Below, piece after piece: positions 526 through 6,161 of a DNA stretch of 23,061 nucleotides. The notes under the pieces are model-generated. The model did not search any database and was not told where the DNA came from. It saw only the letters and a program-made list of their open reading frames with translations. This DNA comes from Methanobacteriota archaeon (GTDB lineage Archaea; Thermoplasmatota; Poseidoniia; Poseidoniales; Poseidoniaceae): assembly GCA_018650165.1 (NCBI GenBank), contig JABIGM010000026.1:1-23061 (forward strand), read 5' to 3'. The stretch's first letter is position 1. Every line of letters begins with the position of its first letter. Made by a program: the position numbers and the translations under genes.

Positions 526-616
526 AATTGACGGTCTTCAAGCCTTTTGGTAGAGGGGTAAATCTGAACGACCTGTAATGCAAATCCTCTTGAGCCACCG
601 CCACACAAAGGCTGGC

Positions 617-3211
617 ATGACCCCGGTGCTTTCGCATCCACTCCTCGATGATGGGGTCGAAGCTAGGGCTTATCAATTGAAGGCTGCCAAAGAAGCAATT
701 TCGGGTTCAACACTCCTAGTAATGCCGACTGGTCTAGGGAAAACCGCTGTTCAATGGATGGCGATGGCTGAGGCAATAGATGGCCCTGGGAGAATTGTAT
801 TGGTTGCTCCAACAACAGGTCTTGTAGCCCAACAAGCAAAGATGGCTAAAGAATTTTTGAAAATAGATTCTGAAAGAATTGTAACTCTGACCGGCCAAGA
901 TCGGCCAATAAAGAGAGAAGAGATTTGGAAACATGCAAAAATTGTAATGGCTACGCCCCATGTAATTAGAAACGATGCCCGGAATGGAAGAATATTACTT
1001 TCGGAAATTGATTTACTCATTGTGGATGAAGCACACCATGCAACCGGTTCAGATTCAATGGCGCAATTAGGTGACATGTATCTTGAAGCATCTCCAAAAG
1101 CCCTAATCCTAGCAGCTACCGCTTCACCAGGCGTAAAGGCAGCCAAGGTTCTAGAAATTATTCAACGTCTCGGAATAGAGCGATTACATATCACAAAGAG
1201 AGACGACGATTTAGTTCAGCCATACATTACATCGATGGATATCGAAAAACATAATTTGAATCTGCCAGATAAATTATTAGAAATTATTAGACCTCTCAGA
1301 ATCTTAGAAGCTGAAGAAGGTGAACTACTAAAGCGCGGTGGTTTCCTTACCAGCCATGGTAGAATTACGACTGCTGCTATCGAAGAAGCACAACGCAGAG
1401 CAAGTGCGGCAATAGGCAAAGGGGATGCACGCGGTTATGATGCTGCCAAACGAATCGGCGACCTGAGAAGACTACACCGGCTGATCGATTTACTTGACAC
1501 GCAGGGCCTAAGGTGTGCAATAATGTATCTTGAAAGAGCTCGTGGAGATAAGGATCGGAAAACCAAACGGTTCCTCTCATTGCCGCCTGTTGCAAATCTG
1601 CTAAGAGAATCTGCCACCAAACAAGAGTGCCACCCCAAACCAGCACTGGTAGAAGAGTTGGTAAGTAGCGGACTAGAGAACGGAGGCAAGGTCATAATTT
1701 TCACTGAATATAGAGATACTGTGAACAACCTGATGGAGATTCTTGAAAAAATTCCAGGAATAAAACCAGGCCGTTTCGTAGGACAAGCAAGCAAAGGTAG
1801 CCAGTTGGGAATGAAACAAAAGGAGCAGATTGAGCAATTAGAACGTTTCAAAGAAGGTGAAATCAATGTCTTAGTTGCTACAAGCGTTGGCGAGGAAGGA
1901 CTTGATGTCCCTGCGGCCGATAGTGTGATTCTATACGAGCCGGTTCCCAGTGCAATAAGAGCAATTCAAAGGAGAGGTCGTACGGCCAGACAGAAGGATG
2001 GAGAAGTACATATCTTGATTGCGCAAGGTACGCGTGATGAGTATGTTCAACAAGCATCATTACGGCGCGAGGAACTGATGTATAGAACTCTAGACTCATT
2101 ACAAAAGCAATCACGACTACCTCGAAGGGCTGCTCCAAATGAAAATGTATTATCTGCATTTTCAGTTGATGGTGAAAATGCAGAATCTTTCATCGAATCT
2201 GAAGAAAAAAGACTATTTCGCGAAAAGAAAGTTGAACCACAAAAAAACCCAGTCCAGAAGAAATCAACAACCAGCACTTATTCTCCTGCCAACCGCCCAA
2301 GAGCACAAAGATCACTTTCGGAATTTAGTACATCTCCAGTGAAGGCGAAAGATGATGGTAAAAAAAGAGATGAAAAATGGTGGAAACCTGTTCTTGATGG
2401 AACAATTACGCATTCTAGAGATAAAGAGTCATCTACTGCTAGCGCAGCACAAACTGAATCAGATTCAATGAGTGAAGAAAAAGATTCTCAAACTATGATT
2501 GTAATCGACCATCGAGAAGCTAATTCGACTTTACCTGCAATGCTAAAATTACAGGGCCATGAAATCAGTATGCAGCATTTAACCGTCGGTGATATTCGAA
2601 TTTCAGATAGAATCTTAATCGAGAGAAAGAGTGCTAGAGACCTTGTCGACTCCTTAATTGATGGACGGTTGATTCACCAGGCAAGAAGATTGCACAGTGC
2701 TGCACCACGGCCGCTAATCATCATCGAATCAAATGAAACGCAAAGGGTTCATCCAAATGCAATTCATGGTGCAATGGCATGGATAACACTTGATCTGGGT
2801 CTGCCTGTAATAATGACTGGGTCTCCAGAACAAACTGCTCGTTTTGTATCGGTAGCTGCAAAAAGAGAGGCTCGGATTCTAGATTTATTGATGAGTCACC
2901 TTAGAAAGAAGCCTATCGATTCAGAAAAATCGGCAATTACTGCTGCATCTGCTGAAATTATGTCAATAATTAATGGTGAATCAGAGGTTGGGCCGCTCGC
3001 ACAGAAATGGTCAAATGAAGTCGTATCTCAAAGAACAAAAATACTAGCAGAATTACCGGGTATTGGAACGAAAACAGCCACGAAGATAATGAGTGTTGCT
3101 GGAGATATAATGGGGCTTTGTATGATTAGTGAGCATGAACTTACCCAAATAAAAGGTGTCTCGTCAATTCAAGCCAGAGACTTATTCAAATTTTTGCATG
3201 GCAATTCATGA
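617..3211 (+). CDS. hef: Hef / FANCM-like SF2 helicase fused to an ERCC4 (XPF) nuclease with C-terminal HhH motifs
   Basis: Helicase motifs MPTGLGKT, DEAHH, TASPG, VGEEGLD and QRRGRTAR; low-complexity linker; nuclease motifs IVIDHRE, GDI and ERKSARD (ERKx3D); HhH motif LPGIG. Start chosen at ATG 617 (MTPVLSHP); the ORF track opens at 578. Confidence 0.93.
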   Translation: MTPVLSHPLLDDGVEARAYQLKAAKEAISGSTLLVMPTGLGKTAVQWMAMAEAIDGPGRIVLVAPTTGLVAQQAKMAKEFLKIDSERIVTLTGQDRPIKREEIWKHAKIVMATPHVIRNDARNGRILLSEIDLLIVDEAHHATGSDSMAQLGDMYLEASPKALILAATASPGVKAAKVLEIIQRLGIERLHITKRDDDLVQPYITSMDIEKHNLNLPDKLLEIIRPLRILEAEEGELLKRGGFLTSHGRITTAAIEEAQRRASAAIGKGDARGYDAAKRIGDLRRLHRLIDLLDTQGLRCAIMYLERARGDKDRKTKRFLSLPPVANLLRESATKQECHPKPALVEELVSSGLENGGKVIIFTEYRDTVNNLMEILEKIPGIKPGRFVGQASKGSQLGMKQKEQIEQLERFKEGEINVLVATSVGEEGLDVPAADSVILYEPVPSAIRAIQRRGRTARQKDGEVHILIAQGTRDEYVQQASLRREELMYRTLDSLQKQSRLPRRAAPNENVLSAFSVDGENAESFIESEEKRLFREKKVEPQKNPVQKKSTTSTYSPANRPRAQRSLSEFSTSPVKAKDDGKKRDEKWWKPVLDGTITHSRDKESSTASAAQTESDSMSEEKDSQTMIVIDHREANSTLPAMLKLQGHEISMQHLTVGDIRISDRILIERKSARDLVDSLIDGRLIHQARRLHSAAPRPLIIIESNETQRVHPNAIHGAMAWITLDLGLPVIMTGSPEQTARFVSVAAKREARILDLLMSHLRKKPIDSEKSAITAASAEIMSIINGESEVGPLAQKWSNEVVSQRTKILAELPGIGTKTATKIMSVAGDIMGLCMISEHELTQIKGVSSIQARDLFKFLHGNS

Positions 3212-4066
3212 ACCGATGAGGATTGCACGGGTTCTTAATTGTGCAAAACGGTCGGTAAAGTGACCTAAAGCGAAGGCGATAATCTCAGTGAGATTAACTA
3301 CAGGAATACTAGTGTCTTTGTTTGCAACTCTTCCTGCTTTACCCTGATATGAATCAAGATTCGAATGTGATTGTGTACAAGCACTAACCAATACTTGTCC
3401 ACCAGCTTTCTTTGCATCATTTAGTACCCTAGCGGTCATCTTCATGACAGTATCTCCAAGCGAAAGCAGTGACGGATTTCCTACACTACTTGTCTTGGTC
3501 TTGTATTCGACAGGACGACCCCCAAGGGCAGTGATTAGTTGTTCCATGTATGTCGGATTCCAAGCATCGTCACCTCCACATGCACCTTTACGCTGCATAT
3601 GTGGTCCGTAGTAGCAAGCGATATCAAGATCTAGAGGGTTGACTACAGCGGCTTCCACTTTGTCCAACCCAATTTCATCTACAAGTACATGCAACAGATG
3701 GCTAGAAGAAATCTCTGATGCATTTAGTGTAAGTCCCGTGGTTTTTTCCAAAACACGATTTGCACTTGCTAGTGCGATTTCATCATTCTGGAAAGTGTCT
3801 AGAGATTCATGGAGAATACCTTGGGCGGAAGCGCAAGCAGTGATTATATCATGGCCTTTTTTCTCAGCAAGTGCTAGATTACGAGCGTTTAGGGCAAGTT
3901 GTAATTCTCTATTTCCTTGCTTGATTATATTTCCACCATCGCTGTTGTAGCCAACGATTTCAATCAGTTCGATCCCAAGGGTTTTGCAAAGCGGTTGAAT
4001 TGTATCTTCGACCTCTCGTGATGATTGGCGAGCTACATTTCCGGGATAATAAGAATATTTTACCAT
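3206..4066 (-). CDS. HdrB / SdhE-like CCG-domain protein with degenerate cysteine motifs
   Basis: Two CCG-like repeats: YYPGN...YNSDGG...TACASA and YYGP...TSSVG...SACTQSHSNLD, ending IPVVNLTEIIAFALG. The spacing fits the CCG family, but most ligand cysteines are substituted. SD GAGGTGA at 4071-4077. Confidence 0.8.
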   Translation of the reverse strand: MVKYSYYPGNVARQSSREVEDTIQPLCKTLGIELIEIVGYNSDGGNIIKQGNRELQLALNARNLALAEKKGHDIITACASAQGILHESLDTFQNDEIALASANRVLEKTTGLTLNASEISSSHLLHVLVDEIGLDKVEAAVVNPLDLDIACYYGPHMQRKGACGGDDAWNPTYMEQLITALGGRPVEYKTKTSSVGNPSLLSLGDTVMKMTARVLNDAKKAGGQVLVSACTQSHSNLDSYQGKAGRVANKDTSIPVVNLTEIIAFALGHFTDRFAQLRTRAILIGS

Positions 4067-4070
4067 GCTA

Positions 4071-4077
4071 TCACCTC
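4071..4077 (-). promoter_or_regulatory. Shine-Dalgarno site GAGGTGA for the HdrB-like gene, overlapping the upstream stop codon
   Basis: Plus-strand tcacctc at 4071-4077; upstream TGA at 4076-4078; ATG at 4066. This suggests translational coupling. Confidence 0.75.
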
Positions 4078-6046
4078 AGAATCTCCCATCTAATTCATTG
4101 AATATTGCAACAACCTCGTGATGGTTGGCAATTTTGGAGTTGAACATGTTTGGTATTTTTCCAATTCCAGCAGGTGGAACAAGCATTCCTTGGAATCCAC
4201 GCATCATTGGACCACCATTGCGTGTAAATCCTAGCATCATCCTGAGAGATATACCATTCATTATGTTAGAACCAAGCCCCAAAGGACCTAGCACTGAGCG
4301 ATAAAGTGTAGTCTCGTTAACATTACCAGACATCTTTACTGAACGTGCGTATGTTTTGACTAGCCGACCAGTCTTTCCGACAAATTTGTATTCAGCCAAT
4401 AGACGTGCTCTTGCAGCGTATAGTGAATCTGCGGCTTGTGACCCATCGATTCCATGGCGGTGTATCGAGGAAATATCTGCCTCATCCCATACGCCACCTT
4501 TGCCTTGCATCAAGTCAAACATCTGCTTGATGTGCGCCTTTCCTGAACGAGGGTCTTGACTTCTAACCCATCGCTGGAGAGCGAGACCTGGGCCAGAATA
4601 TACTTCATCGACGTCATAGGTATCCGACATAGCATTTACCAGTTGGAGTGAACCTACATCTGCTAAAGTGTGAAGATAAGTAGCTTCAGATGATGACATT
4701 ACACCGATTGGAGAGCCATTAGCCAATCTTTCACCTTGGCGTGGGTCTGCTTCCAACCAAGGTTTAGAATCTGCACGAGCATAGTCATAGCGGTCATATG
4801 AGACCATCAGATCTTTCACTACCTCATATCCTGGGACTGGTTCGAGAGTGAGAGTTTCTCCATCGCTTACTAGATCACAGATTCTGGTAGTATCTGCAGG
4901 TAAAATTCTGCCATTTGCCTTAATTCCTGAAAGTGGGTTTTGGCCTACTAGCCCACCACTACGGAATGTAAGAGAACCATCCACTTCCCGCTTTACGGCG
5001 ACCAGTGCATCCTCAATACTAGCATGACCAGGGAGATTTACTGCCACTGTATCGTATCCAGACTGGGCCAGTATAGGGTCGTATCTGAAAATACGCATTG
5101 TGAGAGATATTGCTGGCTGAATGATATTTGCAGGGGTGAAATCTCCGGCATCTACGCCGTCGTCTTCTTCGCCAGCGCCATAAGCAATCATTGCTTCAAC
5201 TAAATCTTCTTGGAATACTCCACCTGAATCGACACAGGCAATTCTTGGAAGAACTTCGCCAACCCATTGACTCCATGGCTCATCAAAGTCCACATCGCAC
5301 AATTTAATATCCAAAATTGATGTTGCACCGAGAGATGCAAATTTACCATCCCAGTCGGTACCTGCTTTGCAGAACTCATCGTACGATGAATCTCCGATTG
5401 CACAAACAGAGTAGTGTACTCCTGAAAGTCCAGGATTAGAACTGCAAGTTGCATTCCAAAGTTCCTCTGCATTATCTGGCATTTCGCCTTCGCCCCACGT
5501 CGAGGTAATAATCAGAATTCTCTTGTGTGTTGCAAACTTGGTTTGATCATAACCATCCATATCGATAACAGATGCCTCCAAACCATACGCTGCTGCTTTC
5601 TTAGCGGTCTTCTCTGCTAAACCTGCTGCGTTGCCGGTTTGTGAACCAAAGAAAACTGCAAGACTGCGGTCTCCAGAAAGAACTCCGGCAAGAACTCCAG
5701 AATTATCTCCCGTATCAGCGGAAGCCGCTGCTGGAGCAGGAGCGGCATCGACAACAGGTGCAACTTCTTCGCTGACTACCTCTGCGGTGCCACCCTCGTA
5801 TTCGAACTTGATAATCTCGACTGGGCAGGCATCTGCAGCCTCTTCGATTAGTTCTGAGTATTCTGCTCGAAACTGAGTTTTAATTGATGAGAAACCAGTG
5901 TTCCTATCGAAAGCACCGTCTTCGCGAACATCCGACTTTATCTGACTCGTATCATCAGTTACCTCGAAAACCTCGGGCAAAATATCTTCACAAGCATCAC
6001 AGGTGATGCAATCTTCCTCTATCCAGACCTTAGCGACGGTTGGCAT
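4076..6046 (-). CDS. Fusion of a single-cluster ferredoxin, a flavodoxin and a cysteine-less SdhB/FrdB-like domain (656 aa)
   Basis: Start at ATG 6046 (MPTVAKVWIEEDCITCDAC) with SD GGGGTGA at 6051-6057. Ferredoxin: CxxCxxC...ACPVEII. Flavodoxin: FFGSQTGNA, ITSTWGEGEMPDNA, AIGDSSYDEFC. SdhB-like: MRIFRYDP, DAL...DGSLTFRS, LEPVPGYEVVKDLMV, KPWL, YSGPG, DPR. Confidence 0.85.
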   Translation of the reverse strand: MPTVAKVWIEEDCITCDACEDILPEVFEVTDDTSQIKSDVREDGAFDRNTGFSSIKTQFRAEYSELIEEAADACPVEIIKFEYEGGTAEVVSEEVAPVVDAAPAPAAASADTGDNSGVLAGVLSGDRSLAVFFGSQTGNAAGLAEKTAKKAAAYGLEASVIDMDGYDQTKFATHKRILIITSTWGEGEMPDNAEELWNATCSSNPGLSGVHYSVCAIGDSSYDEFCKAGTDWDGKFASLGATSILDIKLCDVDFDEPWSQWVGEVLPRIACVDSGGVFQEDLVEAMIAYGAGEEDDGVDAGDFTPANIIQPAISLTMRIFRYDPILAQSGYDTVAVNLPGHASIEDALVAVKREVDGSLTFRSGGLVGQNPLSGIKANGRILPADTTRICDLVSDGETLTLEPVPGYEVVKDLMVSYDRYDYARADSKPWLEADPRQGERLANGSPIGVMSSSEATYLHTLADVGSLQLVNAMSDTYDVDEVYSGPGLALQRWVRSQDPRSGKAHIKQMFDLMQGKGGVWDEADISSIHRHGIDGSQAADSLYAARARLLAEYKFVGKTGRLVKTYARSVKMSGNVNETTLYRSVLGPLGLGSNIMNGISLRMMLGFTRNGGPMMRGFQGMLVPPAGIGKIPNMFNSKIANHHEVVAIFNELDGRF

Positions 6047-6131: not shown

Positions 6132-6161
6132 GGCATTATTCATGTTTAGACAGGGTGAACT

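Follow-up and report, generated by a model that had tools for sequence, protein, structure and literature searches.

Proteins with CCG domains are defined by the non-cubane iron-sulfur clusters that they hold, and the locus described here raises the question of what such a protein does once nearly all of its cluster ligands have gone. The window analysed is a stretch of 23,061 nucleotides (contig JABIGM010000026.1 of assembly GCA_018650165.1) from an archaeon of the order Poseidoniales, or Marine Group II (MGII), the ocean's most abundant planktonic archaea. It encodes a protein, here called P0001, that resembles HdrB of heterodisulfide reductase and SdhE of succinate dehydrogenase-like enzymes. 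An earlier note on this DNA had claimed that P0001 retains two of the ten CCG-motif cysteines, one in each repeat, and had suggested that these two are selected for another role, such as a redox thiol, a single-metal site or ligand binding. Our analysis found that P0001 is a conserved, folded protein whose ligand cysteines were lost in steps, and that it is predicted to bind the equally stripped SdhB-like half of the protein encoded directly upstream. The gene and its two vestigial motifs are as follows.

3206..4066 including the stop, minus strand: HdrB/SdhE-like gene P0001, 286 amino acids (open reading frame, NCBIfam matches, AlphaFold2 model and structural superposition).

3824..4039, minus strand: vestigial CCG motif 1, with N10 (4037-4039), S42-D43 (3938-3943), the kept C78 (3833-3835) and A81 (3824-3826); placed by alignments to HdrB chains and relatives, codons checked.

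3368..3604, minus strand: vestigial CCG motif 2, with P155 (3602-3604), S194-V195 (3482-3487), the kept C230 (3377-3379) and S233 (3368-3370); placed and checked in the same way.

The gene starts with ATG at 4064-4066 and stops with TGA at 3206-3208; the codon of H234 (3365-3367, minus strand) falls just outside the span of motif 2. All motif strings on which the claim was based are present in the translation: YYPGN (residues 6-10), YNSDG (40-44) and TACASA (76-81) in repeat 1, and YYGP (152-155), TSSVG (192-196) and SACTQS (228-233) in repeat 2. The two CX31-39CCX35-36CXXC motifs that supply ten ligand cysteines in canonical proteins are absent from P0001. The ten ligand columns read N10, S42, D43, C78 and A81 in the first repeat and P155, S194, V195, C230 and S233 in the second. 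Alignments made with phmmer to HdrB chains and with MAFFT to relatives confirmed that only 2/10 ligand cysteines are left, each being the first cysteine of a CxxC pair; the D43 column holds D43 or a gap in the phmmer alignments.

Comparison with solved structures by phmmer returned HdrB chains only (E-values 4e-28 to 4e-13, residues 3-269), among them 9sfi_C, 8rvv_B and 5odc_B at 4e-28 to 6e-24. HMMER, run exhaustively against 1.84 billion representative proteins, yielded 1472 relatives of P0001, and the 134 near-full-length best hits among these were aligned with MAFFT. Nearly all aligned relatives outside the clade of the window carry 10/10 ligand cysteines and a few carry seven to nine; only the window's clade has two to four, so the loss of ligands is real and not a chance pattern. 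The best NCBIfam match of P0001 was SdhE (NF042965; 4e-35), where its 121.7 bits against a cut-off of 500 leave it outside the equivalog, and it also falls below the cut-offs of the HdrB families TIGR03288 (2e-32; 112.8 against 345.15 bits) and NF041780 (50.8 against 450 bits). The match to the Pfam CCG domain PF02754 is borderline, with 23.4 bits for the whole protein against a gathering threshold of 20.6 and coverage of residues 7-80 only; no single stretch of P0001 passes alone, and the genome-wide family scan missed the protein.

Analysis of the eight lost ligand positions revealed N, S, D, A, P, S, V and S in place of cysteine, and no conserved Cys or His was found near the vestigial positions that might substitute for them and restore a cluster. 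Judged from the sequence, the claim that P0001 cannot bind the HdrB-type clusters appears sound. The loss is specific to this module, because CCG cysteines are intact in another protein that the genome encodes. A contig-truncated HdrD/EtfD-like protein of this genome (L002:3-803, contig C41) has 4 + 5 CCG cysteines, with a single Cys replacing the CC of its first motif. Mycobacterial EtfD uses this pattern to bind a linear [3Fe-4S] cluster.

Across 201 genomes of the class, the gene was present as a single copy in every sampled member of the order's two families (89/89 and 66/66; 155/155 Poseidoniales in all). It was found in 0/43 genomes of the third family, and the fourth family gave weak canonical-type matches only. 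Within the genus, the ratio of nonsynonymous to synonymous substitution rates (dN/dS) was 0.03-0.06 in the four pairs with unsaturated dS. The AlphaFold2 model of P0001, built from an 82-sequence alignment, has a predicted local distance difference test score (pLDDT) of 93 and a predicted template modelling score of 0.90. It superposes on HdrB chain 5odc_B with Z 35.6 and a root-mean-square deviation (rmsd) of 2.1 A over 278 residues, so that the two-domain HdrB fold is present. Since the gene is single-copy throughout the order, has low dN/dS and gives a confident fold, P0001 is a folded protein under purifying selection and not a pseudogene. Both this gene and the upstream one are represented in four seawater metatranscriptome studies, by seven short contigs that match exactly; the contigs carry no strand or depth information and may include DNA carry-over, and as evidence of expression they are weak.

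Analysis of the retained cysteines revealed that C230 does not vary in any of the 262 sequences checked, which include 121 close orthologues, 20 other genera and 120 further representatives. C78 is likewise invariant except in one 90%-identity cluster, P0394 (13 member sequences, 3 contigs), which has Ser both at C78 and at H234 and keeps C43, C163 and C230. The proposal that the two cysteines are selected is therefore largely supported: it holds for C230 throughout and for C78 in all but that one cluster, where it fails. An obligatory C78-C230 redox pair is disfavoured because C78 is Ser in P0394, a cluster that provides a ready-made natural 'mutant' for the role of C78. Among the former ligands, the first Cys of the CxxC was spared each time a repeat degenerated. 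Several residues of the old site other than cysteine are also kept: S194, V195 and G196 are conserved in 21/21 genera, and the non-ligand residues R62, H123, D166, D167, H234, D238 and Q241 are shared across the wider family. One further cysteine outside the motifs was noted.

3578..3580, minus strand: C163, in a G-A-C-G loop outside the CCG motifs, lineage-specific.

C163 is invariant in the 121 close orthologues, is Cys in 100/120 further representatives and is missing in about a quarter of genera. C27 (105/121 close orthologues) and C151 (110/121) are both local to the genus. C151 and C163 were considered as replacement cluster ligands and rejected, as neither is conserved across the order.

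The history of the loss was followed in one genome per genus from 21 genera and in 120 further cluster representatives. Three states were identified. In state A, found in seven genera from both families, repeat 1 keeps five cysteines (PGC, CCGAG, CxxCQG) and repeat 2 is already degenerate (YYG[ASVT], SVG, ACPLSH), with C230 alone left. State B, found in nine genera of the second family (the Thalassarchaeaceae side), has two cysteines in repeat 1, which reads N, S-C, C, T. State C comprises the window's genus and four others, and has one cysteine in repeat 1, which reads N, S/G-D, C, A/S. Among the 120 further representatives, 44 belong to state A and about 72 to state B, and the remainder are rare intermediates. 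As repeat 1 is complete in state A and repeat 2 is not, the distribution of states indicates that repeat 2 lost its ligands first, in the order's common ancestor, with repeat 1 following later. The symmetry emphasised in the earlier note is thus correct as a count of one cysteine per repeat; as a single designed feature it does not stand, since two separate losses produced it.

Phylogenetic analysis gave conflicting trees for the two genes of the pair. The tree of the upstream partner splits by family (support 100/99), and state A lies at the base of both families. In the SdhE-like gene tree, states B and C form one group (100/99) nested in a paraphyletic state A, and family monophyly was rejected for this gene in the approximately unbiased test (p-AU 0.0063). 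After removal of 43 columns of the repeat-1 ligand region, monophyly was still marginally rejected (p 0.032) and B and C remained joined (99/99). The conflict means either that repeat 1 was stripped twice with widespread convergence, or that a stripped allele replaced the SdhE-like gene alone across the families.

The partner gene ends nine bases upstream of P0001 and encodes a fusion of a ferredoxin, a flavodoxin and an SdhB-like half, with the following features.

4076..6046, minus strand: partner gene, with the Pfam domains Fer4_13, Flavodoxin_1 and Fer2_3.

5807..6019, minus strand: ferredoxin domain, single-cluster CxxCxxC...CP with all four cysteines (Fer4_13, 3.7e-9).

5279..5656, minus strand: flavodoxin (flavin mononucleotide, FMN) domain (Pfam 9.5e-30; FMN domains of CysJ and CPR, 4e-20).

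4079..5134, minus strand: SdhB-like half, residues 335-686, with three iron-sulfur motifs erased.

The longest open reading frame of the partner has 686 codons for amino acids and starts at 6136; the codon of M31 is at 6044-6046, and M31 is probably the true start because the orthologues and the ESM Atlas record begin at that methionine. A profile of the last 352 residues of the partner, built from 20 genera, matched whole SdhB chains (2e-14), and a Foldseek comparison also matched SdhB (1e-8). In the SdhB-like half all cysteines of the [2Fe-2S] motif and of both [4Fe-4S]/[3Fe-4S] motifs are replaced, with E552 and D554 at former motif-II Cys positions, and no conserved cluster cysteine was found in this part across 21 genera. 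A search for stand-alone cluster-bearing relatives of the SdhB-like half returned only fragments of the same family. The partner is adjacent to and co-oriented with the P0001 gene in 20/20 genera, covering both families.

Comparison of the partner between genera revealed that its N-terminal carriers vary. The flavodoxin, with conserved GSQ[ST]GN and STWGEG motifs, is the sole redox module present in every lineage. The ferredoxin domain is swapped for a second flavodoxin in genera g11, g19 and g21, and g20 keeps one flavodoxin only. These four genera have a 3-Cys SdhE-like protein, and no iron-sulfur site is recognisable in either of their two proteins. Their partner loci are as follows.

L045:2794-4995, L053:2713-4992 and L055:2809-4995: partner with second flavodoxin in place of the ferredoxin.

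L054:5855-7459: partner with the ferredoxin absent.

Three prediction runs for the complex between the SdhB-like half and P0001 gave an ipSAE of 0.91, whereas the best of three controls scored 0.00. The ipSAE mark applied is reached by 58/80 solved complexes and by 2/110 mismatched pairs. The runs agree in at least 88% of contacts, and the pLDDT of the partner is at least 92. The models support binding of the SdhB-like half to P0001, and likeness to the solved HdrB-HdrC complex may lie behind part of the score. The predicted interface on P0001 (residues 10-11, 38-55, 80, 83, 155-160, 192-199 and 238-243) is formed by the old ligand loops, and the invariant D505 and D554 of the partner contact S194/G196 in the complex model. 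In these models, what was once an electron-transfer junction appears to be now a conserved polar contact between proteins. A second conserved surface feature of P0001 is its C-terminal tail.

3209..3256, minus strand: C-terminal tail, residues 271-286, R273-x-A-x-L-[RK]-T-R-x-x-V-I-G.

The tail motif is invariant in MGII, differs in canonical relatives and lies outside the predicted interface, and a third component may bind there. Membrane anchoring by the tail was considered and is unsupported, as its hydrophobic moment is only 0.1-0.4 and the tail is not amphipathic.

Comparison with known systems places the pair closest to the SdhB and SdhE subunits of type-E succinate:quinone reductases. 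The nearest relatives with ten ligand cysteines are Nitrospirota SdhE proteins (295 amino acids), which are encoded directly after an SdhB of 324 amino acids. Because these relatives show the same gene order, the pair, to judge from sequence, descends from the SdhB-SdhE of an enzyme of this type. P0001 shares with the SdhE (formerly SdhC) of type-E succinate:quinone reductase and of methylmenaquinol:fumarate reductase the architecture of two CCG domains, the order SdhB then SdhE and a predicted SdhB-type interface. Its gene lies directly after that of an SdhB-type subunit, to which it is bound in the complex model. Unlike type-E SdhE, P0001 is without 8/10 ligand cysteines, its SdhB partner is without iron-sulfur ligands, and the locus contains neither an SdhA nor a working iron-sulfur wire.

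The real succinate dehydrogenase of the genome is encoded elsewhere, on contig C5, where SdhA and SdhB lie directly downstream of a hydrophobic protein of 285 amino acids that is likely to be the membrane subunit of that enzyme. This protein (L015:3176-4033) has no Pfam match and contains several conserved-looking His and Cys residues; it may represent an undescribed type of complex II anchor. A second SdhA-like gene was considered as a partner flavoprotein and rejected, since it is NadB and nothing ties NadB to the locus.

HdrB of the coenzyme B-coenzyme M heterodisulfide reductase (5ODC, 8RVU, 9SFI) has the same full-length fold as P0001, with 24-27% identity and several shared non-ligand residues. 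Unlike HdrB, P0001 keeps only C78 and C230 and has an SdhB-like partner rather than HdrC or HdrA. The host, an aerobic heterotroph without methanogenesis, is also unlike the setting of HdrB.

Partial loss of CCG ligands has been described in several proteins. In DsrK, HmcF and TmcB a single CCG motif is accompanied by one strictly conserved Cys of the lost motif, which has been proposed to be catalytic, and in many DsrK proteins one CCG ligand is Asp instead (PMC10861901). The EtfD homologues FadF and DgcB are without the ligands of one cluster (D1), and direct electron transfer from flavin to the CCG cluster has been proposed for them (PMC13083937). The state A orthologues of P0001, with five cysteines and C230, resemble this one-cluster layout of DsrK, HmcF and TmcB (and of FadF and DgcB), and these basal orthologues have the DsrK-type combination of one full motif and one Cys that P0001 itself does not show. 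The surviving cysteine of DsrK is one of the CC pair, whereas those of P0001 are the first cysteines of CxxC; and unlike DsrK, P0001 has no complete motif and no DsrM-type membrane partner. State C goes beyond any loss of CCG ligands that we found described.

Structural matches after HdrB were 3KWL (Z 24.5), a LutA model (Z 23.3) and EtfD (Z 19.0). Residues 232-493 of the Helicobacter pylori hypothetical protein 3KWL have the same fold as P0001 (rmsd 2.7 A, about 15% identity; profile match 1.8e-8), and a Foldseek comparison with the modelled SdhB-like half of the partner likewise returned 3KWL (1.5e-3, probability 1.00). As both models match it, 3KWL looks like a fused bacterial counterpart of the pair; unlike the Poseidoniales pair, it is one fused chain with no flavodoxin or ferredoxin. 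According to an Atlas lead, 3KWL carries the Pfam families DUF5644 and HdrB-like_C, and HP0468 is annotated as a DUF5644 protein. The Pfam models of these families, PF22196 and PF18712, had no match at E <= 1 in the whole genome of the window. The structural matches that follow are weak (Z 5.2-7.6, rmsd about 7 A) and without exception fall in the Asp/Glu racemase superfamily. No description of P0001 or of the gene pair, and no function for HP0468 or 3KWL, was found in the literature searched.

Overall, the reading that we prefer, and to which we would give an even chance, is that P0001 is a functional, cluster-free descendant of SdhE/HdrB with a thiol-bearing site fed by flavin, rather than a pure scaffold. 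Ligand cysteines were lost stepwise while the gene has remained strongly constrained, which argues for a working derivative and not a decaying gene. In the mechanism we propose, P0001 (SdhE*) and the SdhB-like C-terminal half of the upstream protein (SdhB*) would form a tight heterodimer. In this genus the whole iron-sulfur wire, that is, three SdhB clusters and two non-cubane SdhE clusters, would be gone, leaving as cofactors the FMN of the tethered flavodoxin domain and one [4Fe-4S] cluster of the ferredoxin. The body of the SdhB*/SdhE* dimer would be the docking and substrate-binding part, and the mobile flavodoxin domain would give electrons directly to a ligand bound in the cleft of SdhE*. 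The reactive thiol would be C230, which lies at a helix N-terminus in the former active site, and C78 would assist it in most lineages. The basal relatives would use one non-cubane cluster together with C230, in the manner of DsrK. The absence of metal, the thiol chemistry and the transfer of electrons from flavin to the site are all inferred.

A bolder form of this reading is that a five-cluster SdhB and SdhE module became an iron-free enzyme using flavin and thiol. Its loss of clusters would be adaptive to iron scarcity or oxygen in the surface ocean, and C230 (with C78) would be catalytic in a new flavodoxin-driven disulfide or quinone reductase. Living lineages span 10 to 6 to 3 to 2 ligand cysteines, together with the change from ferredoxin to flavodoxin, and the cluster-free SdhE allele is common to both families. 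We consider this extended proposal unlikely as a whole. If it were true, the exchange of iron cofactors for flavin along resolvable lineages would be a clear example of cofactor economy.

Several observations weigh against a flavin-fed thiol site. C78 is dispensable as a thiol in the P0394 lineage, given the Ser found there. The first Cys of the CxxC sits at a tight strand-to-helix turn and may have been retained for packing alone. In the complex model the partner covers both vestigial pockets, an arrangement that fits a structural interface as well as a catalytic site, and the cassette-like variation of the N-terminal carriers would suit a passive tether.

The same observations favour the rival explanation that survives best, namely that P0001 is a pure scaffold or pseudoenzyme. 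The SdhB*/SdhE* dimer would then have no chemistry itself but hold the ferredoxin and flavodoxin carriers and dock them on another complex, and the cysteines would be kept for packing. All wiring has gone from both subunits, the old ligand loops now form the predicted interface with the pockets buried, the carriers are exchanged between lineages, and a variant with Ser at C78 exists, all of which such a scaffold would accommodate. However, C230 is invariant across the 262 sequences at about 45% overall identity, the same motif position was spared every time, and the non-ligand residues of the cleft that are shared across the family have been kept. Furthermore, no docking partner was identified, and a simple membrane tether by the tail is unsupported, the tail not being amphipathic. 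We regard the scaffold as possible and rather doubtful.

A different metal site, either mononuclear iron or zinc or a small cluster, was also considered, with C78/D43 or C230/H234/C163 as ligands together with D505, E552 and D554 of the partner. D43 sits in a ligand column, and the replacement of a CCG ligand by Asp in DsrK proteins (PMC10861901) provides a precedent. H234 and D238 are conserved, and in the complex model the invariant D/E residues of the partner contact S194/G196 beside C230. In the sister family, nevertheless, a cysteine takes the place of D43; C163 and C151 vary across the order, and H234 is Ser in P0394. No constellation of four ligands is conserved, and we hold such a site to be improbable.

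Far less probable still is a cofactor-independent two-thiol acid/base enzyme with one cysteine per domain, each at a helix N-terminus, across the cleft, in the manner of Asp/Glu racemase, maleate isomerase or arylmalonate decarboxylase. This superfamily has two pseudo-symmetric alpha/beta domains like those of P0001. The non-CCG structural matches are all Asp/Glu or hydantoin racemases or arylmalonate decarboxylase and extend over both domains, the family profile marginally matches aspartate racemase (E 0.014), and local motifs of P0001 may be akin to racemase motifs. The likeness is a resemblance only, as Z below 8 and an rmsd near 7 A are in the range of common arrangements. Moreover, repeat 1 of the basal orthologues holds a full cluster motif and not a single Cys, one lineage has Ser at C78, and a racemase would need no fused flavodoxin. 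Finally, a decaying pseudogene or annotation artefact, as suggested by the lost defining motif and by HdrB/SdhE scores far below the curated cut-offs, is refuted by the intact frame, the single copy in 155/155 genomes, the dN/dS of 0.03-0.06, the confident fold and the conservation of partner and interface.

A full-length, strongly conserved CCG-domain member without clusters was not described in the literature searched. Its close one-cluster relatives constitute natural controls for what the HdrB/SdhE fold adds beyond holding clusters, and they allow the role of the first Cys of the CxxC to be asked directly. The gene pair is a universal, unexplained core pair of MGII. In the databases P0001 is named 'heterodisulfide reductase subunit B', 'succinate dehydrogenase/fumarate reductase cytochrome b subunit' or '8-methylmenaquinol:fumarate reductase membrane anchor', and no public name of the protein can be right as written. 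Because of this mislabelling, metabolic reconstructions of MGII are fed a wrong function.

The named homologues of P0001 are from Candidatus Poseidoniales (Marine Group II), and its neighbours, including a thermosome and Hef, are archaeal. The gene order surface protein, thermosome, pair and Hef is kept in 15-20/20 genera and looks like general MGII synteny, not a functional link. In the window the gene for the Hef nuclease-helicase (578-3211, plus strand) converges on that of P0001, and the 3' ends of the two genes overlap by six bases.

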